A stretch of 64,000 bases of DNA from an uncultured Methanosarcinales archaeon (GTDB lineage: Archaea > Nanobdellota > Nanobdellia > Woesearchaeales > CAXGTL01): assembly GCA_964535955.1 (NCBI GenBank), contig CAZHVK010000009.1, positions 1-64,000 on the forward strand, written 5' to 3'. Positions 25,131 to 58,015 of this stretch are shown here, in pieces. The notes beneath the pieces were generated by a model, which ran no database searches, had not been told where the DNA came from, and saw only the letters and a program-made list of their open reading frames with translations. The position numbers and the translations under genes are program-made. How positions within the stretch are numbered: position 1 is the stretch's first letter; each line of letters opens with the position of its first letter.

Positions 25131-25243
25131 ATGTGCATAGCGCCAGTATTGGCCAGTGAGCAGGAGTTAATCATCGTAAGAATACAACTGTTGCTCAATT
25201 TGACATGGCATTCACATTGAGTATGCGAACGAGCTATGCACAT
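25131..25243 (+). repeat. Structured family C element copy 1
   Basis: Closing stem ATGTGCATAGC/GCTATGCACAT; core GCCAGTATTGGC-CA-GTGAGC ... GCGAACGA. Confidence 0.8.
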
Positions 25244-25342
25244 GCTATGTTAGTTCACGATTATTAACTATCCCTGCTTTTCCGTGATAATCACATTTAA
25301 CAAAGACTAAAATATTTAAACATCCCCTCTATTAATAAATAT

Positions 25343-25789
25343 ATGACATTAACAGATAAAGAGCTATTACTCTTGAACAGTCTAAGACAGAACTGCAGAT
25401 CCAACCTCAGCAAACTCAGCAAACAAATTGGATTGTCTGTTTCTACATTGTTTAATAAGTTAAAAAAACTAGAAAAAAATCATATACAAAAACATACAAT
25501 AATCCTGGATTATAAAAAGATTGGTTATCCTATTAGAAATCATTTTATTGTAAAACCAGAGAAAACAATTGAATTCAAAAATCTCATATTTAATCATTTT
25601 AATGTAAATTCTATATTTCTTGTTGAAAAAGGTGAGTATTATGTTGACTGTCTTTTTCAGGATTTTAAAGAAATGGACGACTTTATCAATCTTATGGAAG
25701 ATAATGATATAAAAGTCAACCAAGCAATCCACATAATTGAGGATATTAAGGTTGAAGAATTCTCAGGTTATGATGTTGATACTTTGTGA
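25343..25789 (+). CDS. Lrp/AsnC transcriptional regulator
   Basis: N-terminal wHTH, LDYKKIGY linker, RAM domain. Confidence 0.88.
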   Translation: MTLTDKELLLLNSLRQNCRSNLSKLSKQIGLSVSTLFNKLKKLEKNHIQKHTIILDYKKIGYPIRNHFIVKPEKTIEFKNLIFNHFNVNSIFLVEKGEYYVDCLFQDFKEMDDFINLMEDNDIKVNQAIHIIEDIKVEEFSGYDVDTL

Positions 25790-25904
25790 TGAAAAATTAC
25801 AAATAATAAAGAATAAAAAAAGAAAGTACAAAAACCAAATAAATAAAACACAAAATATAAAACCAAAAACAACAAAACAAAGAAAAAACAAATAAAAAAA
25901 ACAT

Positions 25905-26369
25905 TCAACCACAATTCATTAAAATTAGCTCAGGATTTGCCATAAACCCTTCTCTCTTTATCTCGTCTATGATATAATAGGTTTTCTTGTCTTCAATTGT
26001 AAACTTTTCTTCAAGCTTTTCAATAAAATCCTCAGCATCTTTGACATGTTTAAACACACCTTCTATTAAAAAGTCAAAGCCATTATTCACTTTATACACA
26101 GAATTCACTAATTGATGTTTTTCAAGAAACATCTTCGCCGAGTCCCTGTCAGTCTTATTCACTTTTACCATGATATTTGCTTTTGTATGAAACCCTAACT
26201 GTTTAAAATCAATCAATGTAGTATGTTTTTGTATCAATCCTTTTTGAAAAGCTCTTAACTTATCATATAATGTTGATACAGGTACATGGATCTTTTTGCT
26301 TAACATTGTTAACCTCATTCTTCCATTATTTCTTAAATGTGCAATCATTTTTAGATCTTTTTCTTTCAT
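25905..26369 (-). CDS. Lrp/AsnC transcriptional regulator
   Basis: LRNNGR.RLT.LSK HTH, IDFKQLGF. Confidence 0.88.
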   Translation of the reverse strand: MKEKDLKMIAHLRNNGRMRLTMLSKKIHVPVSTLYDKLRAFQKGLIQKHTTLIDFKQLGFHTKANIMVKVNKTDRDSAKMFLEKHQLVNSVYKVNNGFDFLIEGVFKHVKDAEDFIEKLEEKFTIEDKKTYYIIDEIKREGFMANPELILMNCG

Positions 26370-26380
26370 TTTATTCCTCC

Positions 26381-26493
26381 AAATGTGTCTGGCGCCAGTA
26401 TTGGCAAGTGAACACCCATTACATGGTTACACGATCAGGGCTTTCTAAGCACCATTGCTGAACATGGAAAGTGCGAACGAGCCAGACACATTT
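26381..26493 (+). repeat. Structured family C element copy 2
   Basis: Closing stem AAATGTGTCTGGC/GCCAGACACATTT; same core as copy 1. Confidence 0.8.
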
Positions 26494-26569
26494 TCAACCT
26501 CCATAAGGCAATTGTCTATATTTTTTAGGGATCTGTTGATTCTGTTTGTCAAACCTGTACTTCTTCAAA

Positions 26570-26623
26570 TGTCAGAATCATACAATGATTCTGATCATGC
26601 TCAGAAACCTTTGGTTTCTGACA
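26570..26623. repeat. 54-bp double-hairpin module outside families A and B
   Basis: TCAGAATCAT-ACA-ATGATTCTGA, TCATGC, TCAGAAACC-TTT-GGTTTCTGA. Confidence 0.9.
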
Positions 26624-26821
26624 TACCCTAAACTTTTCTCTATACCACATATTTTTATCATTTTCATCCCTCTTTTACATATTAAATCACGACTCAATTT
26701 CATGAAATCATGTTTTAAACGTGATTATTATAGTAGATAGTAAAGAAGATATATAAAAAGTTCGGCCTAATTTTCCTTAAAAAGCACAATATTTATATAT
26801 TATACGTGATTATTAGGCATT

Positions 26822-27907
26822 ATGTCAGATAAATTTAAGGGTCATATGCTTGAAAGAGTAGACAAAGATATAGTAAAACTAGATCTCACATATAGGAAAA
26901 TACTGTTTTTATTAGGTACAAATCCTAGATTTTCAATAGAAAAAATAAGCAAAATTACAAGATTGTCTAGAGATGTTGTTGCATATAGAATTAATAAGCT
27001 AAAAGAACTAAAGATCCTTACAGGAGCAATAACTTTATTGAATCCATGGGCATTAGGAGTAGCAATAAATTATACAATATATCTTCAGATGCAGAACATA
27101 GAAAAAGAAAAAGAACAAGAATTAATTGATTTTTTTGTTGCACACAAGCATATAAGATGGGTCTCTACATGTGGTGGTAAATATGATATGGGTTTGGTTG
27201 TCAATACAAGAAATATTGAACAATTTAACAAGATCTTTATGAAGATTATTGAAAAATGTGGTGATTATCTTAAAGATTATATTATCTGTGTACCATTTGG
27301 TGAACATTATTGTTATCCTTATTTCTTGATAGAAGATTTCAAACATAAGGACAAGATCGACCTTACAGACAAGTATCCTGGAAAACCAGATTCTTCATTT
27401 CAAAAAGAGATAATAGCAGCACACAAAACACCACAAAGATATGAACCAATAAAATTAGATAAAAAAGATACAGAGATCCTAAAACTGTTAGAGACCAATG
27501 CAGACATGAAAGTCTCTGAAATATCTAAAAAGATTAACCTCTCATCGAGTTCTGTAATGCAAAGGATAAGGCGTTTGATCAAGGAACGGGTTATCTTAAG
27601 GTTTTACCCTATGATATCATATTCATTGATTGGTCTTCAATGGAACATGTTATTTCTTAACCTAAGAAACTATGATGAAAAAAGATTAAGACAGTTGGAA
27701 AATTATCTAATAAAACACCCGCACATAGTCTGGTTTGTCAAATCAATTGGTAAATGGAACTATGAAGTAAGTGTATTTGCAAAAGATGCATCACATTATC
27801 ACAAGATTGTAGTTGATATTCGTAATCATTTCAAAGATATTGTACGGAATTATGAGACAGTAACAATCTTTACACAGTATAAGTATGTATTCTTTAGTGA
27901 GATTTAG
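26822..27907 (+). CDS. Tandem (double) Lrp/AsnC regulator
   Basis: Two HTH+RAM units (GGKYD and IGKWNY). Confidence 0.88.
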   Translation: MSDKFKGHMLERVDKDIVKLDLTYRKILFLLGTNPRFSIEKISKITRLSRDVVAYRINKLKELKILTGAITLLNPWALGVAINYTIYLQMQNIEKEKEQELIDFFVAHKHIRWVSTCGGKYDMGLVVNTRNIEQFNKIFMKIIEKCGDYLKDYIICVPFGEHYCYPYFLIEDFKHKDKIDLTDKYPGKPDSSFQKEIIAAHKTPQRYEPIKLDKKDTEILKLLETNADMKVSEISKKINLSSSSVMQRIRRLIKERVILRFYPMISYSLIGLQWNMLFLNLRNYDEKRLRQLENYLIKHPHIVWFVKSIGKWNYEVSVFAKDASHYHKIVVDIRNHFKDIVRNYETVTIFTQYKYVFFSEI

Positions 27908-29899
27908 TTAGGTGACTCTGATTTCTATTCCTTTGACTAATTTATCTAAGTAGACACTGTCGCAGCAATTGAATTTGTTAATTTTTTGTATACCACATAA
28001 TCTTTCAAGAGATAAATGTACTAATGTCTCTCTATGATCCTTATGAAGATAATAGTATGCTAATTCAAGATAATGCATCCTCTGTTCGCCTACTTTTTCC
28101 CCTTTCATGTAATCACTAATTTGTTCAATAATTGGTCTGTGTTGTTCTTGATGGCAGTGTCCTGTTTTTTCATATTCCATAAAACATTGAAATATTTCTT
28201 CATGTAATTGATTTGGACCACACCAAGCTTCTGCATAATACTTGCTATCAAAATCTTTAAGAGATGTGATTACACCATCTCTAGAATCCAGGAGAGTTAA
28301 TGAATATCTTGGTGGCTTTTTTTCAAACTTTTTTTTACTTATACTTTTAACACACTCACCATCAACATACTTATTAATACTTTCATTAAAAGCTAACCAC
28401 CTTACAAATTCTTTTGCTCTTCTATTATTTACATTTAAATTAAAGATTATTCTTTTGATGCCTGCTTTTCTAGCTGCTTCATAAATTCCTTTATAAAACG
28501 CATGTTTCCATTGGTCCTGATTTTTGATAAGACTAACCGCGACACCTGTCTCTACACCCTCAATCATCCAAACAGTTTTATCTTCTTCGTTCTTTGCATC
28601 ATTATCTTTACATTTCAAGATATAAGCAACACCTATGTTTTCTTGAAACGCATCATCTAAGTAGGATTGAAGATAAAGTTTTCCAATATTAGGACAAATT
28701 TCACCTAATAAAGCTGCTTCTTTGTATAGACCATTTGGACCTTCAGTACATGATCCTGTTGTAACCTCATTAATCAAAAAATTTTCCAGAGGATTAGAAC
28801 TTTGATATACAACCCTTACCTTATTAAATTCTCTTGTCTCATCATAAATACCTTTTAATTCTAGAAAAAAATGATAAAATTCATCTATGTTTTGCTTTTC
28901 TCTTTTACGATCACAAAAACCAAAAACTTCTCTGAAGAAAAAATCAGGGGAGAGTTCTTCTTGATCCTTGAGTTTATTTTGAATTTCTCGTATTTGATTC
29001 AATATTGATTGATTAATCTTTATTTTTGTTCCATCCATATTTATCTCAGGTATTTTTTCTTTTGTATGACTGTTTGTAGAGGCATTTGAAATCGCTTTGA
29101 GAAAATTTTTAATTTCATGTTTAACATATTGATCCCTGGATTTTCTATCTTTAAATTCATAAAATAATTCTTTTAATTGTATTCCTTCTTCATAAATTAT
29201 GGGTTCTGTAGAAGAAAAAGGGTTCATGAAACTTTCTTTTTGATCAATGATTATTTGTATTAAATTATCTTTGTTCTGTACATTCATTTGTTTTATTAGT
29301 ATGTGTATATTTTTTAATATCCTTCCTTCAAGATCCCACTCAAGAGATAGAAGTTTTATCTTTCTGCCATCAATATTTACTACACTAGAAACATATTGAT
29401 TATCCTCTATAAGATTATAAAAGTGTTCTGAATTAAATGTATGTGAAAGCAAAGTTGTTTGTGCTTTGTTATGAAAATTCTCAGAAAGTTTCCCCATAAT
29501 TTTTGTAAGGATCTCTTGATTATGGCTAAAACGAGTTGCTATTTTGCCAAATTCTTCACCATTATAGAAATTTATCAATTCCTCTTTGGCATCTGCTTCC
29601 CAATATGATAATATGTATGCCATGCCACAAGCTACTTCTTCTTTTTTTTCAAATTTTTTGATGAGTTTTATGAATTGTTCATCTAATAATGATTCGAGTT
29701 TTTTTTTGGCAAGTTCTAATGAATATCTTCTAAAAAGATCATCATGGTGTATGTTTGTAAGGATTGCTTTTTTGATTTTTAGTGAATCATAATCAATTGC
29801 AGAGTCAAGATCAAAATCCAGTCCATTATGATCTAGTGCCTTCTGTATTTCAGTCTTTAATGTGTTTACTTCTTCCTCCAGACTCATCTCATCACTCAC
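27908..29899 (-). CDS. Helical-repeat protein with conserved Cys-containing C-terminal domain; paralog of 29896..32382
   Basis: SSNPLEN.LIN.V.T.SCTEGP.GLYKEAA.L.EICPN, VWMIEGVETG, YAEAW, FNCCDS.YL. Confidence 0.8.
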   Translation of the reverse strand: MSDEMSLEEEVNTLKTEIQKALDHNGLDFDLDSAIDYDSLKIKKAILTNIHHDDLFRRYSLELAKKKLESLLDEQFIKLIKKFEKKEEVACGMAYILSYWEADAKEELINFYNGEEFGKIATRFSHNQEILTKIMGKLSENFHNKAQTTLLSHTFNSEHFYNLIEDNQYVSSVVNIDGRKIKLLSLEWDLEGRILKNIHILIKQMNVQNKDNLIQIIIDQKESFMNPFSSTEPIIYEEGIQLKELFYEFKDRKSRDQYVKHEIKNFLKAISNASTNSHTKEKIPEINMDGTKIKINQSILNQIREIQNKLKDQEELSPDFFFREVFGFCDRKREKQNIDEFYHFFLELKGIYDETREFNKVRVVYQSSNPLENFLINEVTTGSCTEGPNGLYKEAALLGEICPNIGKLYLQSYLDDAFQENIGVAYILKCKDNDAKNEEDKTVWMIEGVETGVAVSLIKNQDQWKHAFYKGIYEAARKAGIKRIIFNLNVNNRRAKEFVRWLAFNESINKYVDGECVKSISKKKFEKKPPRYSLTLLDSRDGVITSLKDFDSKYYAEAWCGPNQLHEEIFQCFMEYEKTGHCHQEQHRPIIEQISDYMKGEKVGEQRMHYLELAYYYLHKDHRETLVHLSLERLCGIQKINKFNCCDSVYLDKLVKGIEIRVT

Positions 29900-32382
29900 T
29901 CAACCCTCACCTCTATACCTTTAACCTTTCTGCCTAAGTATTCAGAGTCGCAGCAGTTGAAAGCATCATCATCCACACCTCTTTTAAACCAAGCCTCTGC
30001 ATATTGTTTTCCACCAAATTTAGCTAATGATTTTATTTCTCCGTTTTCAGAATCCAAAGAACCATCTTCATTACAAAGTGTTAATGAATATCCTGGAAGA
30101 TATTCTTTTTCCTCTAATCTGTTAGGACTTATGTAATCTGTGGGTTGACCTTTTTTATATTTAGTTATCTCTTTGTTTGTACATAACCACCACACAAATT
30201 CTTTTGCTCTTCTACTCTTAACATTAAGATTAAATATTATTCTTTTAATACCTACATCTTCAGCAGCTTGATATATTCCTTTGTAAAAATATTCTTTCCA
30301 TAGATCTTCTTTTATCAACCCAACAGCAACACCTGTTTCAACACCATCAATCATCCACACTTTTTCATCTTTTGTCTTTTTTACACCATTCTCCCAGCAC
30401 TTAAGTATATAAGCAACACCTATATTTTCAGGGTAATCTTCATTATGCATATTGTATTTGGAGTAAGATTGTAGATATATTTTTCCAACATTAGGACAAA
30501 TCTCACTAAGTACTGCAGCTTCTTTATATAATCCTCCTGGTCCCTCAGTGCAAGACATAGTTGAAACATGATTAATAAGAAGATTTTCTAAAGGATTTGA
30601 GCTCTGAGAAACCACTTTTATTTTATAAAAGTTTTCACATTCTTTTTCTGCTTTGATACTGATTAAATAATCATATATTTTTTCGATAGATCTTGCCCGT
30701 TTTTTAGATTCACAAAATTTTATAAGGCCGTTTATTATAACATTTTGTTTTTCTGATATGTACTTATCAGTACCTGCATGTTTTTGTGGATCATAAAATT
30801 TGTTATTTAAAAATCCGTATTCCAATCCAAATAATGAACTATATAAATCCATTAACAATTTCTTGTCAATTTTTATTTCCTCTTGATTTTCAATTTTTAA
30901 TCTACATTTTCTTTTATTTTTGTCTATTTCTTTGGCAATTTCTCCTTTTAACCTATTCATCTTATTCTCAATAACTTGTATTAATGATGGTTCCTCACTC
31001 CCCTCTTCAATACATTTGTCATAATAATCATCAAAATGAATACCTTTTGGTTTTACATTTTCTTTAATAAACTCTTTGTCATTTTCTTTAAACGGTGTCT
31101 GTGTTTGGTCGTTTTTTGTAATAAATTCTATTGCTTTTCTCATATATCTAAATTTACTATCTACGAATTTGATAAGTCCATCAATGCTGTATTTAATTTT
31201 TCTTATACCTTCATCGTGCGATCCATCTGGTGCAACTTCATCAAAATAAGCAGGGTGTTCTTTTAATTTTGTCATTAATTCTTTAAAATTGTTTGATGCA
31301 AATACTTCAATAAGACTTCCTTTTTCGACACTAATCTCAGAGACCATTCTTTCAGGAATGTTATTTATAACCAGAGAATATTCATCAAACGACCCATACA
31401 TTTTTTCAAACCTATCTGACAGAAAAAATTCCATGTTTTCCTCTTTTTTTGATAGATAAAATAACACAATTTCACTTAGATGTTTATATAATTTTTTTCT
31501 TGACTTTAACTTCCTTGTAAAATCTTTAAATTCTTTTGTGTTTATAAACTTTAAGAATAACTCTCTGTTCTCTCTATCGTCTCTGTATTCCTCTGCAGCA
31601 CACAATAAGTAAGTTATTGCGTCTCCTACTTCATCTTCTTTGAAATAATTCATTGATGAATAATATTCTTCTGAAGATAAAAAATCAAGAGGTAAATCTT
31701 GTCTAAAATCCAAACGTGACAACATATCAAACAATCTTTTAGAGCCAGGATTTGTTCTGTTGATCATCTCCTTAAAATCTTTTGATAAAGAAAAATTCAT
31801 AAATTCTCTCTTATACCTGAAAAGGCTCACAAAACCTATTATTGTAAACATTATGTGTTCAGGATATCCCCTGAAATACAATGCGCATTCTTCAAATTCT
31901 TTTGAGCATATCACATCCATTGCTTCATAATTAGTTTTAGATAATGAATTTGTAAATGCTTCTATTGCTTCATTAGGGTTCTTAAGGAGTCTTTTAAATG
32001 TAGTTGTTGTTTCTTTAAACTTTTCACTTAAATACATTTCCAACAACTCTTGTTTCATAATATAACTAATTCCTGATCTAAAATCACTTAATCTAAACAA
32101 TATTGTCTTTAGTATTTTAGTATCTTCTTTTTCAAATCTTTTGATTACTTGATCATATTCTTCAGATAATAAAAAATCCATCTGACTATCAAATATGTGA
32201 AGGTGTTTATGAAAAAACTGTTCATTGATAATTGTGCTTAGGATTATTTCTGTTATCTCCTTTTTCTCTTTATATTTTTCTCTTAATCGATCAAGTTTGG
32301 TAAAATTGTAGTCTGGATCCTTTTCTCTTATTATTCTTTTAATTTCAGTTACCCTTTCCTCCAAACTCACATCATCACTCAC
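29896..32382 (-). CDS. Helical-repeat protein with conserved Cys-containing C-terminal domain
   Basis: Same motifs as paralog; probable GTG start MSDDVSLEE matches MSDEMSLEE of the paralog. Confidence 0.8.
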   Translation of the reverse strand: MSDDVSLEERVTEIKRIIREKDPDYNFTKLDRLREKYKEKKEITEIILSTIINEQFFHKHLHIFDSQMDFLLSEEYDQVIKRFEKEDTKILKTILFRLSDFRSGISYIMKQELLEMYLSEKFKETTTTFKRLLKNPNEAIEAFTNSLSKTNYEAMDVICSKEFEECALYFRGYPEHIMFTIIGFVSLFRYKREFMNFSLSKDFKEMINRTNPGSKRLFDMLSRLDFRQDLPLDFLSSEEYYSSMNYFKEDEVGDAITYLLCAAEEYRDDRENRELFLKFINTKEFKDFTRKLKSRKKLYKHLSEIVLFYLSKKEENMEFFLSDRFEKMYGSFDEYSLVINNIPERMVSEISVEKGSLIEVFASNNFKELMTKLKEHPAYFDEVAPDGSHDEGIRKIKYSIDGLIKFVDSKFRYMRKAIEFITKNDQTQTPFKENDKEFIKENVKPKGIHFDDYYDKCIEEGSEEPSLIQVIENKMNRLKGEIAKEIDKNKRKCRLKIENQEEIKIDKKLLMDLYSSLFGLEYGFLNNKFYDPQKHAGTDKYISEKQNVIINGLIKFCESKKRARSIEKIYDYLISIKAEKECENFYKIKVVSQSSNPLENLLINHVSTMSCTEGPGGLYKEAAVLSEICPNVGKIYLQSYSKYNMHNEDYPENIGVAYILKCWENGVKKTKDEKVWMIDGVETGVAVGLIKEDLWKEYFYKGIYQAAEDVGIKRIIFNLNVKSRRAKEFVWWLCTNKEITKYKKGQPTDYISPNRLEEKEYLPGYSLTLCNEDGSLDSENGEIKSLAKFGGKQYAEAWFKRGVDDDAFNCCDSEYLGRKVKGIEVRVE

Positions 32383-32518
32383 CCCTACCACCCTTCCACA
32401 TCTTGATAATAGCTTCTTCTACAACATGACTCTTGTTTCTAAATGAACTTTTTCTCAGAATTTCACGTATCTTTTCAATAGTTTCTTGATCCAGGGATAC
32501 ACTTACAACATGTTTCAT
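32375..32518 (-). CDS. Ribbon-helix-helix (CopG/MetJ-like) protein (not in ORF track)
   Basis: MKHVVSVSLDQETIEKIREILRKSSFRNKSHVVEEAIIKMWKGGRGE*; beta-strand plus two helices; overlaps next gene. Confidence 0.75.
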   Translation of the reverse strand: MKHVVSVSLDQETIEKIREILRKSSFRNKSHVVEEAIIKMWKGGRGE

Positions 32519-32655
32519 ATATTAGGCTCCCTAACACCTCTTATTCTTATTAAGAATTATTAATCCTTTATAAATTTTTCCTTTTTTACTATGTGGCAGT
32601 GACATATAAAACTTACAGAATAAATAAAAAACAATTTAAAAGAAATCTATTAATC

Positions 32656-33432: not shown

Positions 33433-33439
33433 ATTAACA

Positions 33440-49571: not shown

Positions 49572-49590
49572 TGTTCTTAATAACCTAGAA

Positions 49591-51018
49591 TTATGCAAAC
49601 CTATGTCTTCTAAAATATCTAGCAGGATTATACCTAGAACCATATCCTTGTGTTTTAGCACCAAATAATTGTATCTTATCAAAAAACAAGTCAATGCCTT
49701 TTCCAACCAGTGCACCACCTGCAGCACCAATCAAAGAGAATAAGAATATTGGCCAAACATCAAATGGCTCAACATCAAAACCTTTTTTAAAATTCTTTCT
49801 ATAGATTTTTCTTGAAATTTCCATAATGTCTTTGTAAACTTCTTTCCTATTACCTTTAGCATTAAAAAACTCAATATTAATTAATTGATTGATTCTTTGT
49901 TCAAGTATTGGCACATATTGCTTAGCATAATTAATACCATCAAAAACTTCCATTAACAAAGGATGTATTTTTTGAGTATCTTGTCTTATTTCTTGTACAA
50001 GTCTGTATTCTATAGGACCAGAATGAGATCTAGAACTTACTCTTTCATAATCACCTTTATGCCATCTTTGTTCAATAAGATCTTTTGCATTAGCCCATTT
50101 AGGTGCTAATTGTTTCAGACTAGACAATCTTGCTAATGCAACAGGAATATTATCAGTCATAGTAGCACCATAAAACCACATGTTTGCAATTTTTAATAAT
50201 TCTTGTTCTGTTAATTCACCTTTATTATCTCTATCAGATCTGCTGACGATTGCAGCTTCTGACCCTTCTGTATTAAACTCATTTGCAAGCATTATTTTTT
50301 CCATACGCAGATTACCAAACCTATCTATTGTATCTTCAAGTGCATTATGTGCTGCTTGACCAAAAGAATTATTATATTTATAATTATGATGAGAATAATC
50401 ATATTGCATTTCCATTGTAGTTTCTAATTCTCCTTCCATATTCAGACCTATACTTGGTTGAAGTGATTCAAAATCCTCTCTCCAATATTTCCATGTATTG
50501 TCAAACTTACTATCAACACCTGCAACAGCTATTCTAAACATAAGAAATTCATTAAGATCTTTTTCAACATTTTCAACAATCTGTGGAAAAACCTCAAAAT
50601 AATCAATTAATTTAAGATATTGTTTTTCATAAGTTTTTTCCCTTTTTTCCTTGTCTTGTCTTTCTCTAAGTTCATATGCAAATTTATGTATATTGTCTCC
50701 TGTAACCAATGTTTCATCATACCATGATATCCTTGGCACTGTTCTATAAGAATCATTTGAAGATTCAAAAACCTTCATAGGAAGATCATTTACAGCTGTC
50801 AGATATCTTGTTTGTGATTCAACTTCTTTACCTTGTTCTTTAGCTTGTGTTTCGATTTGAGCAATTTCAGAAAATCCTAATGGAATTATCTTTGATTGGT
50901 TACATTGATATTTCCATTGCCAACCACCCAATACAGTAGAAAGAACCAAAGCTCCTGTTATTACTTCTATTGCTGCGCTTTCTCTTAATATTGTTTTTAC
51001 AGTATCACTAAAAGTCAT
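49591..51018 (-). CDS. Membrane-anchored hypothetical protein
   Basis: TM segments near both termini. Confidence 0.7.
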   Translation of the reverse strand: MTFSDTVKTILRESAAIEVITGALVLSTVLGGWQWKYQCNQSKIIPLGFSEIAQIETQAKEQGKEVESQTRYLTAVNDLPMKVFESSNDSYRTVPRISWYDETLVTGDNIHKFAYELRERQDKEKREKTYEKQYLKLIDYFEVFPQIVENVEKDLNEFLMFRIAVAGVDSKFDNTWKYWREDFESLQPSIGLNMEGELETTMEMQYDYSHHNYKYNNSFGQAAHNALEDTIDRFGNLRMEKIMLANEFNTEGSEAAIVSRSDRDNKGELTEQELLKIANMWFYGATMTDNIPVALARLSSLKQLAPKWANAKDLIEQRWHKGDYERVSSRSHSGPIEYRLVQEIRQDTQKIHPLLMEVFDGINYAKQYVPILEQRINQLINIEFFNAKGNRKEVYKDIMEISRKIYRKNFKKGFDVEPFDVWPIFLFSLIGAAGGALVGKGIDLFFDKIQLFGAKTQGYGSRYNPARYFRRHRFA

Positions 51019-51142
51019 ATTATATATAGGATAAAACTCCACTTTATAAATCTTTCCATGATTAACCACCTCCAAGTGATAACTAAGCCATCACCAAATA
51101 ATAACAAAAACAATATAAATAAACCCTACTCCAACTAATATT

Positions 51143-51961
51143 ATGGACATAAAAATACTTAAAAAAGCACTTGAAGCATCTTGGAATATTGATACTTGTC
51201 ACAAGCCTATGAAAAAAGACTATGCAAAAAACCATCCATCATATGGTCAATGCTATCCTACAACATTAATAGTAAATGACTTTTTCGGCGGCAAGATATT
51301 AAAATATAAATTCCCAGAAACAGAAATAGGTCATTTCTCAAATCTAATAGATGGAAAAGAAGTCGACTTATCAAGAGAACAATTTGATAAAGATGAATCA
51401 TTTCCAAAACCACAAATTATAGACAGAAAAACATTAAAAACATCAAAAGCATACTTAATACTAAGATCTCATGTAAATAAATACCTGACAAAAAATTATC
51501 CAGACAAAGAAATAGAAAAACTATCATATAGACAAGGTATTTTAGCAGTTATTCTTAATTCAAAAAAACAAATATTAATTATCTCTGCACCAGATGAACC
51601 AGATTATTGGCGTTTTCCATCAGGTGGTGTTGACCCAGGTGAAACACATGAACAAACAGTGCACAGAGAACTAAAAGAAGAACTAAACATAGAAGTTGAC
51701 ATAATAAAAAGAATAACAGATGTTACAAACAAGTTTATCTGGCCAAAGATAGTCATAAAAAAACACAATAATAAGTACAAAGGCCAGCAAAAACATATAT
51801 TCATAACAAGAATCAAACCAAACCAAAACATAATTCTGCAAGAAGAAGAGATCGGTGGCTATAAATGGGTAAACAAAGAAGAAGTAGAAAACTATTTCTT
51901 ATACCCAAATCAAAGATCAACAGCAAAAAAAATCTTTGATGATTATAAAGAGTTTTTTTAA
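51143..51961 (+). CDS. YunG-like domain fused to a Nudix hydrolase
   Basis: GQC..T..IVND.FGG, GHF.N, VDLSREQF; Nudix box GGVDPGETHEQTVHRELKEEL. Confidence 0.8.
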   Translation: MDIKILKKALEASWNIDTCHKPMKKDYAKNHPSYGQCYPTTLIVNDFFGGKILKYKFPETEIGHFSNLIDGKEVDLSREQFDKDESFPKPQIIDRKTLKTSKAYLILRSHVNKYLTKNYPDKEIEKLSYRQGILAVILNSKKQILIISAPDEPDYWRFPSGGVDPGETHEQTVHRELKEELNIEVDIIKRITDVTNKFIWPKIVIKKHNNKYKGQQKHIFITRIKPNQNIILQEEEIGGYKWVNKEEVENYFLYPNQRSTAKKIFDDYKEFF

Positions 51962-51965
51962 ATAA

Positions 51966-52691
51966 TCACTTCCTCTTATTCAAATCAGGAAGACTCTGAA
52001 CCACTTTCGGCTTTGGTTTATGATCTGTTCTTGGCCTTGCTGGTCTTCTTGGTCTGTGTGAAGTTCTTGGATGTTTTGATCTTGCTGGTCTTTTTGGTTT
52101 AGTTGTTTTTGTCAGCTTTTTTTGTTTTTCAGTTTTTTTATATGGTTTTTTATAAGGTTTCTTGTATTTTGTTGCTGGTTTTTTGTCAGTTTTTAAAAGA
52201 TATTTATTCAAATCTTTTCCAAGATCACAAAAATCATCAGCTTCATTCTTTAGAATCCTAGAAGCAGTCTTAGAAAAAGCAATAACTTCTGTTCTACAAC
52301 CATGAGACTTAAGATATAATAATAATTCACCAAAATCACCATCACCAGATACAAGAACAACAGTATCAACTTTTTGTGCCATTCGAACAGCATCCATTGC
52401 AATACCAATATCCCAATCACCTTTTTTAGTACCAGTAATAAATGTCTGCAAACCTTTCATCTTTACTTCAATACCAAGTCCTTCAAGAGCATCATGAAAC
52501 TTTGATTCATCTTTCATATCAGCTTTTATCACATAAGCGATTGCCTTGACAAGTTTTCTTCCAGAAACAGCTTTTTTCAATATTTCACCAAAATTAACTT
52601 TTGCATTATACATATTTTTTGCAGAATAATACATGTTTTGAACATCAAACAATACTAATAATCTTTGTTCTTTATGTTTTAATTTACTCAT
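51966..52691 (-). CDS. NYN (LabA/DUF88) PIN-like nuclease with basic tail
   Basis: FDVQNMY, KGDWDIGIAMD, LVSGDGDF, ADDF. Confidence 0.92.
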   Translation of the reverse strand: MSKLKHKEQRLLVLFDVQNMYYSAKNMYNAKVNFGEILKKAVSGRKLVKAIAYVIKADMKDESKFHDALEGLGIEVKMKGLQTFITGTKKGDWDIGIAMDAVRMAQKVDTVVLVSGDGDFGELLLYLKSHGCRTEVIAFSKTASRILKNEADDFCDLGKDLNKYLLKTDKKPATKYKKPYKKPYKKTEKQKKLTKTTKPKRPARSKHPRTSHRPRRPARPRTDHKPKPKVVQSLPDLNKRK

Positions 52692-52711
52692 TTTGTTTGC
52701 ACCTCTTGTTT

Positions 52712-52847
52712 AGAGTATGTATTTAGTTAGTTGGCCTTTGTTTGTCTTTGAGGCTTTCTACCATCGTAAGATGATCAAGGATTGAAAACTTTAACATATA
52801 TAATTATGTTTTCAGGCGAAAAGACTAGCCAACTAAATACATACTTC
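52712..52847 (-). ncRNA. Candidate structured leader of the NYN gene
   Basis: 15-bp perfect outer stem AGTATGTATTTAGTT/AACTAAATACATACT enclosing a multibranch structure. Confidence 0.5.
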
Positions 52848-53138
52848 TTATATAAAATAACTTAATATCTTATGAAAATAATAATTTATTTTGTTATTAT
52901 TTGTTTTAAACACTTTCCCTTTATAAGAGTTTGTAATTCTTTTACCAGGACTTGTGATTATTACACCATCTAGATCAGGTTCTCTGCTTCCATTTGCTAT
53001 ATTATAAACAACACCTGTTTGTTCTTCTTTCTCAATCACATTTTCTAGAATTATTTTTGTCTCTTTTTTTCTTTTTACTTTATCAACTAGTCTTTCACGA
53101 TTTGTACAAAGTGAAACAACTCTATCCTCTTTTGTCAT
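52848..53138 (-). CDS. Hypothetical protein
   Basis: 96-aa ORF with TATA upstream. Confidence 0.45.
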   Translation of the reverse strand: MTKEDRVVSLCTNRERLVDKVKRKKETKIILENVIEKEEQTGVVYNIANGSREPDLDGVIITSPGKRITNSYKGKVFKTNNNKINYYFHKILSYFI

Positions 53139-53201
53139 ATCTTTTATTTATATTCATATTCATATATAAACATTTATATGATTGAATATTCAACATAAAC
53201 C

Positions 53202-53382
53202 AGCTTTGTAGAAAACCTGTCGTTTCCAACCATTTTCTGCCGTTGCGAGGGCTCATCACTATTAAGCCCGAGCAGGCAGGGTGTCAAGAATCAGAGATTC
53301 TTGATCATGCTCAGAAATTTGTGAACCAACAAATTTCTGACACAACGGCGAGGTAAAGCCGAGTAAGGTTTTCTACAGAGTA
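53202..53382 (+). mobile_element. MITE family B copy 2, carrying a double-hairpin module
   Basis: Ends AGCTTTGTAGAAAACC / GGTTTTCTACAGAGTA; 8-bp flanking repeat CATAAACC; aligns with reverse complement of 42692..42812. Confidence 0.85.
53282..53342. repeat. 61-bp double-hairpin module
   Basis: TCAAGAATC-AGA-GATTCTTGA, TCATGC, TCAGAAATTTG-TGAACCAA-CAAATTTCTGA. Confidence 0.85.
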
Positions 53383-53505
53383 CATAAACCACAAACTTTT
53401 TATATAACATATATTTTATTCATACTTGGGTTTAACTTCTTTGTAAGCAGAGTAAATGCAATAATAATAGTAATATTTATAAATAGATATGGAGTTTTGA
53501 TACAC

Positions 53506-54159
53506 ATGGCAACAATATATGATATAGATCCAAATGAATTGATTGAAAAAGCAGGATTAGAATTTAAAAAATTAGGCATAAAAAAACCTTCTTGGAGTGA
53601 TTTTGTTAAAACAGGACGTCATAAAGAAAGACCGCCTGCAAATACAGATTGGTGGTATTTTAGACTTGCAGCTATTCTTAGAAGTGTTTATAAGCTTGGT
53701 CCTATAGGTGTTTCAAAATTAAGAACAAAGTATGGTGGAAGAAAAAATAGAGGCCATAAACCAGATAAAGTGTTTAGAGGGTCTGGTTCAATAATAAGAA
53801 AAGCATTGCAACAACTTGAAGAAAATGGTTTTGTAAAAAAAATTGAAAAAGATGTTCACAAAGGAAGAATTATCACTCCAAAAGGAACATCATTCCTAGA
53901 TAAGATTGCTTCACAGATATATAAACCAAGACCAAAAGTAAAGATTGAAGCAGCACCTAAAAAACAAGAAAAAAAACCTAAAAAACAAGTTATAAAAGAA
54001 CAAAAAAAAGAACCAGCAAAACAAGAAGCAAAAGAAGTTGTTAAGAAACAACCACAAGAACCAGCAAAACAAGAAACAAAAGAAGTTGTTAAGAAACCAG
54101 ATAATCTTCCAAAGGAAAAACCTGAGCAACAAGTAGAAGGGGTTAAAAAAGAGGAATAA
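53506..54159 (+). CDS. rps19e: 30S ribosomal protein S19e with K/E/Q/P-rich tail
   Basis: VKTG.HKERPP, WWY.R.AA.LR, GSGSIIRKALQQLE. Confidence 0.95.
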   Translation: MATIYDIDPNELIEKAGLEFKKLGIKKPSWSDFVKTGRHKERPPANTDWWYFRLAAILRSVYKLGPIGVSKLRTKYGGRKNRGHKPDKVFRGSGSIIRKALQQLEENGFVKKIEKDVHKGRIITPKGTSFLDKIASQIYKPRPKVKIEAAPKKQEKKPKKQVIKEQKKEPAKQEAKEVVKKQPQEPAKQETKEVVKKPDNLPKEKPEQQVEGVKKEE

Positions 54160-54213
54160 AGATGTATGCAAAATTTATTTTGCATGCTACGAACGAATTA
54201 AAGGTGAGTGAGT

Positions 54214-54387
54214 ATGGCAAGATACAAATCAAAAGGAAGAAAAATAAGATTATCAAAATTACACAAAAGAACAAGATGGGCACCTTTTTGGACAGTTCCA
54301 AAGATATATGGCAAAGGCAGAAGGGTTCACCCTGGACGTCATACTGTTATTAAAAGATCTTGGAGACGGACAAAAACTAAAGCATAA
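54214..54387 (+). CDS. rpl39e: 50S ribosomal protein L39e (not in ORF track)
   Basis: MARYKSKGRKIRL...APFW...KRSWRRTK; GGTGA SD; conserved position before rpl31e. Confidence 0.85.
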   Translation: MARYKSKGRKIRLSKLHKRTRWAPFWTVPKIYGKGRRVHPGRHTVIKRSWRRTKTKA

Positions 54388-54392
54388 AAAAG

Positions 54393-55132
54393 ATGGCAGA
54401 AGAAAAGGAATTAAAAAGAGTGTATAATGTTCCACTTAGAAGAGAGTTTCTTAAAACACCTAAATGGAAAAGAACAAAAAAAGCAGTAAAAGCATTAAAA
54501 GAATTCTTAGCAAAGCACATGAAAGCTGACATTAATAATGTTTTGATTGGTAAAAACTTAAATGAACATGTTTGGAAAAATGGTATAAAAAACCCTCCTC
54601 ATCATGTTAAAGTAGAGGCAATTAAAGATAAAGAAGGTATTGTAAAAGCTGAGTTAGAAGGTTTTGAATATAAAACTTACAAAAAAGAAAAAAAAGAAGA
54701 AAAAGGCGCACTTGGCAAAGTTGTTGACAAATTAAAAGGTGGAAAACAAGAACAAAAACAAGAAGAGCCAGAGAAAAAAATAAGAACAAAAGACAAATTA
54801 AAAGCAAAAAAAGCAGAAGAAAAAGCAAAAGAAGAGAAAAAAGAACAAGAGAAAAAAGAACAAGAGAAAAAAGAACAAGAGAAAAANNNNNNNNNNNNNN
54901 NNNNNNNNNNNNNNNNNNNNNNNNNNNNNNNNNNNNNNNNNNNNNNNNNNNNNNNNNNNNNNNNNNNNNNNNNNNNNNNNNNNNNNAAGAGAAAAAAGAA
55001 CAAGAGAAAAAAGAACAAGAGAAAAAAGAACAAGAGAAAAAGGAAATAGAGAATAAGGAAGAGAAGAAAAAACAAGAAACACCAAAAAAAGAAACAACAG
55101 AACCTAAGAAACCAGAAGTAAAAAAACAATAA
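54393..55132 (+). CDS. rpl31e: 50S ribosomal protein L31e with KKEQE-repeat tail spanning a gap
   Basis: RVYNVPLR, KRTKKAV, LNEHVWKNGIKNPP; repeat frame right of the gap ends at TAA 55130-55132. Confidence 0.92.
54834..55040 (+). repeat. 15-bp coding tandem repeat GAGAAAAAAGAACAA; copy number unresolved
   Basis: Identical units on both sides of the N gap. Confidence 0.9.
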
Positions 55133-55185
55133 ACTTAATAAACAACAACGATTTCTGACATATTAACCCATAAAGAGTATAAAAA

Positions 55186-56178
55186 ATGAAAGAAAGACTG
55201 CCATTTGAAAAAATAGAAAGAAAAGTTCTTACTAAAAAACAAGCTGAGACTTCTGATAAGTTTGGTTGTGATCCTAATAATAGGTCAGTTGATGAACTAA
55301 TTAACTATGGCATTATTAACATAGACAAACAAAAAGGGCCAACATCTCACCAAGTAACAGCTTATGCAAAAGACATTCTTAAAATAAACAAAGCTGGACA
55401 CAGTGGCACACTTGATCCAAAAGTCACAGGTGTTTTGCCAACAGCAATAGGGAGAGGTACAAGAGTAGTCCAAACCTTATTAATAGCAGGCAAAGAATAT
55501 GTTTGTCTAATGTATTTACATAAAAAAGCAGATGAAAACCATATAAGAGCAACAATGAAGAGTTTTGTTGGCAGGATTGAACAAATGCCGCCTGTCAAAA
55601 GTGCTATTAAAAGACAGCTCAGAAAACGTTCTATTTATTATTTAGACATATTAGATATTAAAGACCAATCAGTATTGTTCAGAGTTGGTTGTGAAGCAGG
55701 AACTTATATTAGAAAACTTTGCCATGATATTGGAAAACAACTTGGTATAGGAGCACACATGTCAGAACTTCGAAGAACAAAAGTTGCATGTTTTACAGAA
55801 GAATCATTAGTAACATTAAATGATATCAAAGATTCATTATGGTATTACCAGAATGAAGGTAATGAAAAATATATCAGACATGTTATCCAACCGATAGAGT
55901 TTGGTGTTAGGCATATTCCAAAGATTTGGGTGCTTGACACAACTGTTAATTCTTTATGTCATGGTGCTAATCTAAAAATACCTGGTATATCTAAATTACA
56001 TTCAGATATAAAAAAAGGTGATATTATAGCTGTTATGACACTTAAAGATGAGTTAGTATGTATTGGCGAATCAATTACAACTTCTAAGGATATCATGAAA
56101 AATAATAAAGGTCTTTGTGTTATTATCAATAAGGTCTTTATGCTTCCAGGTATTTATCCAAGAATTGAGAAAAAGTAA
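55186..56178 (+). CDS. cbf5: H/ACA pseudouridine synthase Cbf5 (TruB family)
   Basis: GPTSH, GHSGTLDPKVTGVL, GTYIRKLCHD, PUA domain. Confidence 0.96.
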   Translation: MKERLPFEKIERKVLTKKQAETSDKFGCDPNNRSVDELINYGIINIDKQKGPTSHQVTAYAKDILKINKAGHSGTLDPKVTGVLPTAIGRGTRVVQTLLIAGKEYVCLMYLHKKADENHIRATMKSFVGRIEQMPPVKSAIKRQLRKRSIYYLDILDIKDQSVLFRVGCEAGTYIRKLCHDIGKQLGIGAHMSELRRTKVACFTEESLVTLNDIKDSLWYYQNEGNEKYIRHVIQPIEFGVRHIPKIWVLDTTVNSLCHGANLKIPGISKLHSDIKKGDIIAVMTLKDELVCIGESITTSKDIMKNNKGLCVIINKVFMLPGIYPRIEKK

Positions 56179-56179
56179 T

Positions 56180-56464
56180 TTACTCATAAAATTCAATATT
56201 ATCATATACACCTAATTCTTTAAGTGTATCCATTCTTTTTTTGAACTTATTATATGCACCTTTTATCATTGCAAGTGGCAGATGAAGAGTAACATATCCT
56301 AAAGAATAAAGAGTACTCATTCCTTCTCTGAATTCTTGTTTTGCACCAGGTTTAATCTCTTGTTTTGCTTCTTCTTCAACACATGTTTCTAAAACTCTTG
56401 ATGAACCAATAGAAATAGCTTCACTCATCACATAATATGTTTGTTCATTTTTCACCATAACCAC
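56180..56464 (-). CDS. Hypothetical protein
   Basis: 94-aa ORF. Confidence 0.5.
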   Translation of the reverse strand: MVMVKNEQTYYVMSEAISIGSSRVLETCVEEEAKQEIKPGAKQEFREGMSTLYSLGYVTLHLPLAMIKGAYNKFKKRMDTLKELGVYDNIEFYE

Positions 56465-56555
56465 CTTTTCAAAAAAAAGGGATTGATTTTGTTTATAAGG
56501 TTTTATCTTGTGTAGAACATATTATGAAAAAGAAAGGGAAAAAAAAAGAATTATT

Positions 56556-57287
56556 TCAATATTTTAGGAATTTCTGACCTGTTGTTTTCTCAACACCTAC
56601 CCAGAATGAAGCAATTGCTTCTAAGCATTTTCGGCAAGTATATAATGTTGAAGCTTCCCATAACATGTTACAGTTTAGTTTTTGTTCATCTTCGTAACCA
56701 TTAACAATTGCATATTTTGAATCATGGTGTTCATCAAACCCTAGTAAATGACCTGCTTCATGTTTTGCCATATGTTTAATAAAATCTAAGGAATTTTGTC
56801 TTCCATTTGGTAAAGCTAAAACCATATAACCTTTAAAAAATTCTGCTTGTCCCCAATCTTGTGTTCCTCTTGTTAAATATTTATCAACTAACACAACATC
56901 AGCATGAGGTGTTCCTCGTTTAGTAGGGTCTCTCCAATGTTCTGTAATAAGTTCCTTTGAGAGATGGTATCCATCAACAAAACCATTTTCCTGATTAATA
57001 GATCTATTAACTTGTTGAATCACAGTTTCATCAACTCCATAATCTTTTACTTGTAATTTTAAACCAAGCTGATTCAATAATTCTTCAATTCCAGCTTTAA
57101 CATAAGGAACTACTTTTCCATCAACACCTGGTACCCTCATAATTCTTATCTCTTTGCCCAATATCCAATTAGAACAAAAATAATCTTTGCCATCAATTCC
57201 TTCAGTACGATGATCATGATGACGATCAGCATAAACTTTGAACCAGGAATCTTGCCATTTTTCTCGTGATTTTTGTCTTTCAAACAT
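56556..57287 (-). CDS. Zinc metalloprotease, archaemetzincin-like
   Basis: HEAGHLLGFDEHH, CNM Met-turn, CRKC. Confidence 0.8.
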   Translation of the reverse strand: MFERQKSREKWQDSWFKVYADRHHDHRTEGIDGKDYFCSNWILGKEIRIMRVPGVDGKVVPYVKAGIEELLNQLGLKLQVKDYGVDETVIQQVNRSINQENGFVDGYHLSKELITEHWRDPTKRGTPHADVVLVDKYLTRGTQDWGQAEFFKGYMVLALPNGRQNSLDFIKHMAKHEAGHLLGFDEHHDSKYAIVNGYEDEQKLNCNMLWEASTLYTCRKCLEAIASFWVGVEKTTGQKFLKY

Positions 57288-57384
57288 TTTTAATATCCTC
57301 CTATTATATCTTAAGTTATATCCAAGAAACCATTGCCATTATTAAAAACCTCTTATATTCAAACCAAGATAATCCCGAAAAGAA

Positions 57385-57537
57385 TGGGTCTGGCCGGACT
57401 TTCATCTTTACAGATCTTGAACCGGCGACCATCTCGATTTTAAAAACAACTGCGTTGTTTTGAAGTTTCAACACAGTTGAAACAGTCAACGAGATGTCAT
57501 TTATGGTGTAACAACATAGCCACTAGACCACAGACCC
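57385..57537 (-). tRNA. tRNA-Val(GAC) with D-loop (57501-57517), anticodon-loop (within 57438-57484) and T-loop (57399-57415) introns
   Basis: GGGTCTG/CAGACCC, TCTCG/CGAGA, GCCGG/CCGGC stems; BHB helices GTGG/CCAT, TTGA/TTAA, TTCA/TGAA. Confidence 0.88.
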
Positions 57538-57539
57538 AA

Positions 57540-57836
57540 TCATTTACTAAGGTCAGTTATATGCAATCTTTCATCAACAAACTCAACTTTAACTTCTTTT
57601 AAATCATTAAACAAAAGATCATTTCCCCAAGGCAGAAACTTAGCAACCTTAAAATTTTTTAAATAACAACTTAATGCTCTAAACTCTAATATCTTGAAAG
57701 GCATCTTTATTGTCTTATGAGGGTTATTTATCTTAAAAAACTTTACTTGTGTATTATAAGGATACATTTCATGTTCTTCTTTATTATAATTCTTAATTCT
57801 TGATACTAACATTGATTTTGCTTTATATTTTGTCAT
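57540..57836 (-). CDS. Hypothetical protein
   Basis: GGGGTG SD; stop 3 nt before tRNA-Val. Confidence 0.65.
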   Translation of the reverse strand: MTKYKAKSMLVSRIKNYNKEEHEMYPYNTQVKFFKINNPHKTIKMPFKILEFRALSCYLKNFKVAKFLPWGNDLLFNDLKEVKVEFVDERLHITDLSK

Positions 57837-57904
57837 GTATAAACACCCCCTTATATCATAAAATACAGTCCTTACTTATATATAAATGTATCTCAAAATA
57901 ACAC

Positions 57905-58015
57905 TGGTGCAACCCGCCAGTTTGGCCAGTGAGCCAATGTTATTCATCGTAAGAATGAGTTGAGGCTCTATTTGTCCTCATAATAAATTAGAGTCGGTGA
58001 ACGAGGGTTGCACCA
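57905..58015 (+). repeat. Structured family C element copy 3
   Basis: Closing stem TGGTGCAACCC/GGGTTGCACCA; core GCCAGTTTGGC-CA-GTGAGCC ... GGTGAACGA. Confidence 0.8.

Follow-up and report, generated by a model that had tools for sequence, protein, structure and literature searches.

The 64,000-nucleotide stretch analysed here (the window; positions 1 to 64,000 of contig CAZHVK010000009.1, assembly GCA_964535955.1, forward strand) carries three copies of a dispersed, non-coding repeat of about 113 nt, which we call family C. Family C behaves like a MITE (miniature inverted-repeat transposable element) in which pairing, not sequence, maintains the inverted ends. Its copies share a fold maintained by compensatory changes, they show an 8-bp target duplication, they have been gained, lost and inverted between congeneric genomes, and they are polar with respect to replication. 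With moderate confidence, we read family C as a MITE-like hopping element of which a single-stranded fold is recognised or selected, and which is coupled to the replication fork. Its hosts are a subset of marine Woesearchaeota-like DPANN archaea.

All three window copies lie on the + strand (Table 1), as determined with the family covariance model (R1) and by eye, at the places where an earlier note on this DNA had put them. Their closing stems extend over 14, 13 and 11 bp with zero mismatches (G.T counted as a pair). The core motif GCCAGT..TTGGCNAGTGA was seen three times against 0.00 expected, and GNGAACGAG three times against 0.16 expected. The other structural elements that the note had described, namely the GCCA/TGGC hairpin, the GT-GA-RC / GY-GA-AC helix with its tandem G.A, the GA before the 3' arm and a further covarying stem, are all present, and every one of these helices holds in the 43 and 54 further copies described below. 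When each window copy was folded against 200 shuffles, z was -4.1 to -4.7 on the + strand and -3.6 to -4.9 on the - strand, and 0/200 shuffles folded as well.

The source genome (G000) comprises 1.49 Mb in 31 contigs, with about 30% G+C, and is 100% complete by markers. A whole-genome motif search returned 35 places, 32 of them true copies, from which a profile was built. The nhmmer profile (E below 1e-6) and R1 (E up to 0.01) each identified 56 copies, about one per 27 kb, of which 43 score above 85 bits with R1. The element is 111–117 bp long in the window and typically about 113 nt, with no coding capacity; eight of the 56 copies reach 160–190 nt because they contain a nested double-hairpin element of about 53 nt. 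All 56 are intergenic by crude gene calls, many of them within 3–30 nt of a gene end. Outside this genome, family C is sparse: with R1, 7 of 151 genomes in a sample of the order gave a match, G000 being one of them, as did 5 of 151 in a phylum-wide sample, all five labelled as the same order, with no match in 144 and 146 of the sampled genomes, respectively. In all, 11 genomes with the element stand against roughly 290 sampled ones that lack it. Copy numbers in these samples are lower bounds, as 24 candidates were scored per genome. Close copies elsewhere come from records titled Woesearchaeota or Nanoarchaeota and from some metagenome-assembled genomes (MAGs) labelled Methanosarcinales. A scan of viral contigs gave no matches. 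Twelve bacterial matches in a pattern scan of the genome collection were attributed to chance (about 25 were expected, a rough estimate from collection size) and were not given to the model. Five contigs of G000 (C10, C12, C14, C15 and C18; 23–44 kb) have zero copies. Coding on these, C15 excepted, is strongly one-sided (74–91% on one strand), C12 and C14 have slightly higher G+C, and C12 encodes proteins of 746 and 2205 aa with repeated domains; the five may be special regions or foreign DNA.

Two alignments establish the fold. The first contains 43 of the 56 G000 copies, after leaving out 11 without a clean motif pair and two in which the P2 region is disrupted by a nested insert. On it, RNAalifold predicted 28 pairs, 24 of them with compensatory change, and a column scan added three, giving 31 pairs counted. 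Over these, 96.4% of 1333 cells pair, compared with 69.6% in shuffled controls and 23–42% when partners were slid by 1–3 columns; 26/31 pairs show changes on both sides, and 0/500 shuffles reached the observed percentage paired or covariation score. The second alignment contains 63 model matches from other genomes (54 distinct sequences), taken from 24 of 36 genome-collection loci, those labelled archaeal, and from loci of genomes G002, G011, G039, G072, G092 and G140. Here 94.4% of cells pair and 29/31 pairs carry double changes, figures that favour structure somewhat since this alignment was fitted to the model, with slid controls at 28–41%. The covariation is stronger in the larger alignments, as the earlier note's proposal of a structured motif would have it. 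Pairwise identity among the 43 copies has a median of 56% and a maximum of 87%. Because the sequence drifts this fast and yet every helix is kept by compensatory change, it is probably the single-stranded form of one strand that is recognised or selected.

The fold consists of five helices (P1–P5) with a three-way-junction core. P1, the closing stem, has at least 12 bp in the family (arms of 11–14 bp in most copies) and varies at every position: mirror-image changes occur at all 12, with up to six pair types in the 43 copies. Its end sequences fall into subfamilies, and arm sequence is not conserved across them. P2 directly abuts P1 and takes the form G(C/U)C, loop, G(G/A)C, followed by the junction nucleotides C/A and A. 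P3 is a long-range helix spanning two hairpins; it starts with G-U and the tandem G.A/A.G, continues for 3–4 pairs and covaries at 4/5 pairs, including those that flank the tandem G.A. The two G.A pairs are kept in 42/43 and 43/43 G000 copies and in 53/54 and 49/54 copies elsewhere. P4 ends in U(C/U/G)-GUAA-like-(G/A/C)A, and the closure of this GNRA-like loop covaries at pair 50-55 (C-G in 24, U-A in 14 and G-C in 4 copies), while pair 49-56 is U-A in 43/43. P5 has 7 bp and an A-rich loop, with compensatory change at 6/7 pairs in G000 and 7/7 elsewhere, and a junction GA precedes P1'. The most conserved parts of the element are unpaired nucleotides (CAG-GA, GAACGA and the GUAA loop).

No Rfam 15 family matched any part of the window at gathering score, and at E up to 10 only chance-level matches appeared, none of them on the + strand over the copies. 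The two refuting conditions that the earlier note had named, an Rfam match and a lack of covariation in a larger alignment, both turned out in favour of its reading. Two known folds considered by eye were set aside. The sequence GAG...CGAA resembles the stem II junction of a hammerhead, but several copies have C-G (GCGA/GAGC) in place of the U-A pair beside the G.A pairs, and the strand lengths do not fit; a k-turn would have a 3-nt bulge, and there is none. Since the neighbouring U-A covaries to C-G, the tandem G.A lies inside a continuous helix rather than in a k-turn or hammerhead core. A tRNA or tmRNA origin was likewise dropped, there being no such gene in the window.

The earlier note had contrasted family C with MITEs, whose ends conserve sequence. 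That contrast fails, given the precise termini, the exact 8-bp target-site duplication and the presence/absence differences between congeners. The duplication was measured with a test anchored on the common termini (5' NTATGT-G/A/T, 3' C/T/A-ACATAN), to which all sequences analysed contributed 15 distinct copies; it replaced earlier screens with automatic stem extension that were noisy because stems ran into AT-rich flanks. The 8 nt flanking each end are identical at 8/8 positions in five of the 15 copies and at 6/8 in three more. Mean identity is 5.3, against 2.6 for shuffled pairing, and 500 shuffles yielded no pair with 7/8 identity. All five perfect octamers, TGTAAAAA, GGTGAAAT, TACTTTTT, GTATAAAT and GAAAATTA, are rich in A and T. 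Flank repeats of 11 nt at two copies (C3:141764 and C4:9740) are possibly chance extension in low-complexity DNA. The direct repeats that the note had seen around window copies 1 and 2 do exist, although they are decayed 8-bp duplications rather than repeats of 13–15 bp (5/8 identical at copy 1; 5/8 at copy 2 after a 1-nt shift). Of the two properties that it had proposed, a structured single-strand motif and possible mobility, both are supported, and the motif, which the note had not recognised, indeed matches no catalogued RNA family.

Comparison with a congener (G072) points to the same mobility. Four of its six copies sit where G000 has none: at L094, L107 and L120 the G000 flanks abut or leave a short spacer only, and at L116 the G000 region differs. 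The L094 copy is flanked by the 9-nt repeat TTAATTTTC (GAAAATTAA on the sense strand), which with end-anchored termini becomes the exact 8-bp duplication GAAAATTA, and the L107 copy by the 8-nt repeat TTAAAAAA. The other two copies lie in spacers that hold a copy in G000 too. In one of these, the element is inverted relative to well-aligned flanks, through either an inversion between its arms or a second insertion. In the other, the copy is of another end subfamily and is found on the opposite side of a C-rich repeat, and is therefore an independent insertion. This C-rich repeat of about 50 nt (G-rich on the other strand) adjoins some family-C copies, in G000 at C1 ~4050-4130 (minus) and C4 ~92960-93010 and in G072 at L112:1430-1490; its order relative to family C is swapped between the two genomes in one shared spacer.

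A third of the end-defined copies have perfect duplications, and yet no near-identical sister copies exist. Replicative bursts would account for this less well than relocation (cut-and-paste) or the import of copies from a diverse pool, which suggests hopping rather than copying. Arm-to-arm mini-palindromes of the kind expected as excision footprints numbered 6 against 4.2 expected. DNA contigs of four runs over positions 22000-30000 offered only short same-strain contigs over copies 1 and 2, with no joint across the element. Truncated family-C fragments occur at C2:112067-112120, C6:62047 and L153, and solo end motifs in G000 are relics or chance. At C1:79616-79735 of G000, a minisatellite with units of about 17 nt (ATAGAAATATAGAAATAC type) is immediately followed by a solitary sequence resembling a family-C 3' arm, CCATACACATAC.

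The orientation of family C follows replication. We computed GC skew corrected for coding strand, as the mean of plus-strand and minus-strand gene skews within 15 kb, and found the sense (folded) strand on the C-rich strand in 88/96 testable copies from four genomes: 45/51 in G000 (of 56 copies), 12/14 in G072 (one split copy counted once), 13/13 in G092 (eight copies and five further, model-only matches) and 18/18 on four large contigs of G247, from another family. Whole contigs are uniform (C1, 15/15 minus; C4, 6/6, C3, 4/4 and C9, 3/3 plus), with coding balanced between the strands. In G000 the downstream gene is co-oriented in 40/56 cases and the upstream gene in 26/54, and 11/56 copies are antisense to both neighbours. 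Orientation follows replication, not neighbouring genes. Mutational skew does not explain the polarity, because the element itself is slightly G-rich (+0.07). In a closed relative (G016), the corrected skew switches from minus to plus exactly at orc1/cdc6, so that G-rich is taken as the leading strand in this order, and the sense strand of family C would, on the evidence of this relative, have the lagging-strand sequence and lie on the leading-strand template. At the only orc1/cdc6 of G000 (C3:94285-95529), unlike in G016, the skew dips towards zero without changing sign. The weakest model match (28 bits; C3:93668-93788) lies directly upstream of this gene. An origin reading for this locus (about 95 kb of C3), with its weak copy upstream, was rejected for want of a skew switch.

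The two G.A pairs and the GNRA-like loop remain strand-specific across genomes, and folding with DNA energy parameters favours the sense strand in 35/43 copies, by a mean of 1.24 kcal/mol. In 45 aligned flanks we found no promoter-like or T-run signal at a fixed distance and no A-rich or other 3' tail. The nested double-hairpin element (TGTCAT...CTGACA type) always occupies predicted unpaired parts of the eight copies that contain it: the P2-P3 junction in three, the P2 loop in two, the P3-P4 linker or P4 loop in two and the P5 loop in one. About 34 such elements exist in G000 (68 two-strand profile matches), eight of them inside family C, to which about 0.45% of the DNA belongs. If the double-hairpin element targets single-stranded DNA, these inserts hint at a probing of the fold in vivo.

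We envisage a non-autonomous element of about 112–117 bp that would enter AT-rich intergenic DNA through a cut staggered by 8 bp. The two ends of the element form the 11–14-bp stem P1, closing a fold of P2, P3 with its tandem G.A, P4 with its GNRA-like loop, and P5. The recognised form would be the folded single strand, most likely single-stranded DNA at a replication fork and less likely a transcript, and a hypothetical trans-acting enzyme would read it by shape. Insertion, or survival after it, would be coupled to the fork, which would explain why about nine of ten copies have their folded strand on the C-rich strand, and the element would move by hopping (cut-and-paste) rather than by copying. 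A bolder version, which we regard as a doubtful proposition, makes family C the substrate of a new DPANN transposition pathway in which the whole element is read by the three-dimensional shape of one folded strand, by an enzyme outside the nine families searched. Such a pathway would excise the element and paste it in a single orientation at forks, but the target would be cut with an 8-bp stagger. If real, it would join features known only separately, from single-strand systems of the IS200/IS605 or attC type and from DDE transposons.

Several results weigh against a folded single strand coupled to the fork. With RNA energy parameters, sense and antisense fold about equally well. The earlier note's observation that all G.T wobbles fall on the + strand is correct for the three window copies, and in G000 the GU:AC ratio is 22:7, but in other genomes it is 26:28; the asymmetry is not a family property, and this sign of one folded strand is lost there. 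The restriction of nested inserts to loops may be ascertainment, since inserts in stems would escape the model. One of about six youngest copies (C11:29537) is discordant in polarity, and the polarity could be due not to the mechanism but to selection acting once copies are inserted. Double-strand integration of the DDE type is what a fixed 8-bp duplication marks, and we know of no single-strand transposition pathway that makes target duplications. The search for an enzyme speaks in the same direction: nine transposase or reverse transcriptase families gave no credible match in G000, among them Y1_Tnp (PF01797, IS200/IS605) and TnpB-type families with no match at all, and IS6, IS1595, ISL3, IS256 and IS1 were without a match in G000, G072, G092, G002 and G039. 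An all-versus-all comparison of 1277 crude open reading frame (ORF) products of G000 gave 14 pairs with at least 60% identity and no large high-identity family.

Among those five genomes, DDE_Tnp_1 was found in G092 only. The single RVT_1 match in G000, weak and below the Pfam cut-off, is a Trm5/TYW2 methyltransferase and not a reverse transcriptase. MAGs often lose insertion sequence (IS) copies, so an enzyme missing from a MAG is not proof of absence. No longer element with family-C ends was found in G000, viral contigs or metagenome contigs. An 18-mer scan of metagenomes returned 10 loci, three of which match the model; at one locus (L153:2428-2531), the left end of a family-C copy (arm, P2 and CAGTGAGCA) runs into unrelated sequence, with which an ORF of 163 aa without a Pfam family begins. 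As far as can be seen, this is a truncated copy and not an autonomous element.

The strongest rival, though we consider it unlikely, is that the host uses a structured RNA that sits on or derives from a mobile repeat (an mRNA stability or processing module, a terminator or insulator, or a small RNA gene), the fold being selected in the transcript at each site. RNA-like traits speak for it, namely the GNRA-like tetraloop with covarying closure, the invariant tandem G.A and the conserved junction nucleotides, as do the intactness of nearly all copies (43/56 above 85 bits) despite 56% median identity, the stems that stay intact where the target duplication has decayed, and an exclusively intergenic placement, often 3–30 nt from a gene end and sense to the downstream gene in 40/56. 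The analogous bcr1 repeat is transcribed and keeps its fold by compensatory changes, according to the accessible part of the paper describing it (PMC3184786). A host RNA, however, would not be expected to orient by replication (88/96) with 11/56 copies antisense to both neighbours, to lack a fixed-distance promoter-like or T-run signal in 45 aligned flanks, to change sites between congeners or to occur in only 7/151 and 5/151 sampled genomes. We give much less credence to a chromosomal signal that the host reads directionally, such as a place for priming or assembly on single-stranded DNA, a site at which forks pause or a long counterpart of KOPS or ASPS. It would account for near-absolute polarity in four genomes, for the roughly even spread of one copy per 27 kb on most large contigs and for the weak copy directly upstream of orc1/cdc6. 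Target duplications and empty sites nevertheless show arrival by insertion, the element is absent from most sampled relatives and from contigs C10, C12, C14, C15 and C18, and no skew switch accompanies the orc1/cdc6 copy in G000.

An ordinary DDE-type MITE with a functionless fold is a little less probable than a host RNA. Its ends would covary to fit the same transposase, template-switch correction of quasi-palindromes during replication would keep the internal palindromes, and polarity would come from purging of the more stable strand on the exposed lagging-strand template. The exact 8-bp duplication, the precise ends and the end-sequence subfamilies speak for such an element, as does the higher stability of the sense strand (35/43 copies, mean 1.24 kcal/mol, DNA parameters). 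Bacterial IS moreover have family-specific, replication-linked orientation biases, ISL3 and IS91 being against the fork, as far as the accessible text of one survey goes (PMC3971601). Mirror-image changes at all 12 P1 positions are, on the other hand, unlike protein recognition of each end; the long-range P3, interrupted by two hairpins, covaries at 4/5 pairs; the unpaired CAG-GA, GAACGA and GUAA loop are the most conserved parts; none of the nine families has a credible match in G000, with DDE_Tnp_1 only in G092; and about 1 kcal/mol is a weak basis for a polarity of 18/18 and 13/13. Least probable of all is a retroelement resembling a short interspersed nuclear element, its folded RNA copied by target-primed reverse transcription at forks. 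An RNA-like fold that brings 5' and 3' ends together would suit it, as would truncated fragments (C2:112067-112120, C6:62047, L153) and a few copies whose flank repeats are longer or offset (11 bp; C3:141764 and C4:9740). Against this, no reverse transcriptase was found in G000 (its sole weak RVT_1 match being the methyltransferase), both ends are precise, the duplication is fixed at 8 bp and there is no 3' tail. The same results speak against a derivative of a group II intron.

Table 1. Family-C copies and neighbouring genes in the window, and G000 copies that contain the nested double-hairpin element.
Feature	Position	Strand	Remarks
Copy 1, whole element, 117 nt	25129..25245	+	R1 96.2 bits; between divergent genes
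Copy 1, left half of decayed 8-bp target duplication, TGTGTTGA	25121..25128	+	right half 25246-25253, TATGTTAG; 5/8 identical
Copy 1, P1 5' arm, GTATGTGCATAGC	25129..25141	+	partner 25233-25245; all 12 P1 pairs covary in the family
Copy 1, P2 hairpin GCCA-GTAT-TGGC	25142..25153	+	covariation C-G/U-A at pair 17-27, U-A/A-U at pair 19-25
Copy 1, P3 5' strand GTGAGCA	25156..25162	+	G.A at 25158-25159; partner 25224-25230
Copy 1, P4 tip TC-GTAA-GA	25174..25181	+	GNRA-like tetraloop, two closing pairs
Copy 1, P5 hairpin GCTCAAT ... ATTGAGT	25193..25222	+	
Copy 1, P3 3' strand TGCGAAC	25224..25230	+	G.A at 25227-25228; junction GA at 25231-25232
Copy 1, P1 3' arm, GCTATGCACATGC	25233..25245	+	
Copy 2, whole element, 113 nt	26381..26493	+	R1 93.3 bits; 12 nt from start codon of divergent Lrp/AsnC-type gene
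Copy 3, whole element, 111 nt	57905..58015	+	R1 94.2 bits; model span 57903-58017
EamA transporter gene	24204..25082	-	beside copy 1
Helix-turn-helix (HTH) regulator gene	25343..25789	+	beside copy 1
Lrp/AsnC-type regulator gene	25905..26369	-	beside copy 2
Regulator gene of the same cluster	26822..27907	+	
Small ORF	57540..57836	-	beside copy 3
GDPD phosphodiesterase gene	58168..58833	+	beside copy 3
Copy with nested element	G000:C2:746-913		
Copy with nested element	G000:C1:159377-159541		
Copy with nested element	G000:C1:37924-38090		
Copy with nested element	G000:C4:25140-25320		
Copy with nested element	G000:C4:16510-16690		
Copy with nested element	G000:C6:16093-16259		
Copy with nested element	G000:C20:7351-7510		
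Copy with nested element	G000:C11:139-307		

All three window copies sit between divergently transcribed genes, copy 2 between two Lrp/AsnC-type regulators. Copies 1 and 2 occupy the divergent spacers of a cluster of three HTH, Lrp/AsnC-type regulator genes (Table 1), the middle one of which has paralogues of 66–74% identity on contig C4 (110460-110966 and 112931-113407). Positions 58069-58128 (+), which closely follow copy 3 and precede the GDPD gene, weakly resemble an archaeal C/D-box small RNA, with Rfam matches to sR10, sR1, sR18 and sR14 at E 0.37–4.7 and 10–14 bits against gathering scores of 38–45; this may be a real guide RNA or chance. The window also encodes a Cbf5-type pseudouridine synthase and IleRS with DUF5915, genes that mark its source as archaeal.

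DPANN archaea have tiny, streamlined genomes with few recognised mobile elements, and this lineage nonetheless retains a repeat in dozens of copies, the sequence of which evolves fast while the shape does not. Few repeats of any kind have their orientation locked to the replication strand as nearly absolutely as family C does in four genomes. This lock makes family C a free marker of replication direction in fragmented MAGs and offers a handle on the interaction of mobile DNA with the archaeal replisome. If the fold is a transposition substrate, a structure-reading recombinase awaits discovery; if instead the host uses the RNA, family C would be a new archaeal RNA class. A literature search on Woesearchaeota with miniature inverted-repeat elements, on structured RNA or covariation in DPANN archaea, on compensatory change in MITEs and on orientation bias did not bring up a description of the family, which is apparently undescribed. 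Replication-linked orientation has a precedent among IS (PMC3971601, from its accessible text), but our searches brought up no report of it in MITE-like elements or in this lineage.

The closest analogue is bcr1 of the Bacillus cereus group, a repeat of about 155 bp with 5-bp direct repeats that is transcribed and in which compensatory changes keep a cruciform-like RNA fold (PMC3184786). As described in the accessible part of that paper, it shares with family C the character of a small, non-coding dispersed repeat with short flanking direct repeats, a multi-stem fold with compensatory changes and sites that differ between related strains. It differs in being bacterial, in its 5-bp duplications and in being known to be transcribed, whereas family C is archaeal with 8-bp duplications, is built on a three-way-junction core that includes tandem G.A, along with a GNRA-like loop, and is polar with respect to replication, a property that the same part of the bcr1 paper does not mention. 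Classical prokaryotic MITEs (Correia/nemis, ERIC, RUP and RPE) resemble family C in size, in having terminal inverted repeats and a target duplication, in being spread between genes in many copies and in lacking coding capacity. Sulfolobus SM1–SM4 are classical MITEs that share these general features. MITE ends, however, are normally conserved in sequence and match a resident IS, while those of family C vary everywhere and yet stay complementary, identity among its copies is only about 56%, G000, viral and metagenome contigs yielded no partner IS, and its orientation is locked to replication.

Among mobile elements with strong orientation bias, IS200/IS605 and the PATE derivatives recognise folded single-stranded DNA and are coupled to the fork, as we propose for family C. 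IS200/IS605 elements differ in having no target duplication, separate subterminal hairpins with conserved cleavage sites and a need for Y1, and their PATE derivatives insert 3' of a fixed tetra- or pentanucleotide, whereas family C has an 8-bp duplication and no Y1 match in G000. Integron attC sites are folded single-strand recombination sites defined by shape, of which one strand is used, and they occur in cassette arrays beside an integrase, with conserved core sites and no 8-bp duplication. Definition by single-strand shape rather than sequence is what we propose for family C as well. ISL3 elements make 8-bp duplications. IS91 makes none, and no ISL3 transposase was found in five element-bearing genomes; the ends of ISL3 and family C are apparently unrelated. 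In the accessible text of a survey of bacterial IS, orientation relative to replication is family-specific: IS200-type elements go with the fork, IS200/IS605 being biased to the leading-strand orientation, unlike family C with its sense strand on the lagging strand, while ISL3 and IS91 are biased against fork movement, like family C (PMC3971601). The same text reports a PCNA-binding motif in an archaeal IS200 transposase (PMC3971601). Finally, KOPS, Chi and the archaeal ASPS are skewed in orientation with the replichore, as is family C (88/96), but they are short, lineage-conserved oligomers read by a known motor or nuclease, whereas family C is a folded unit of 113 nt that most sampled relatives lack.

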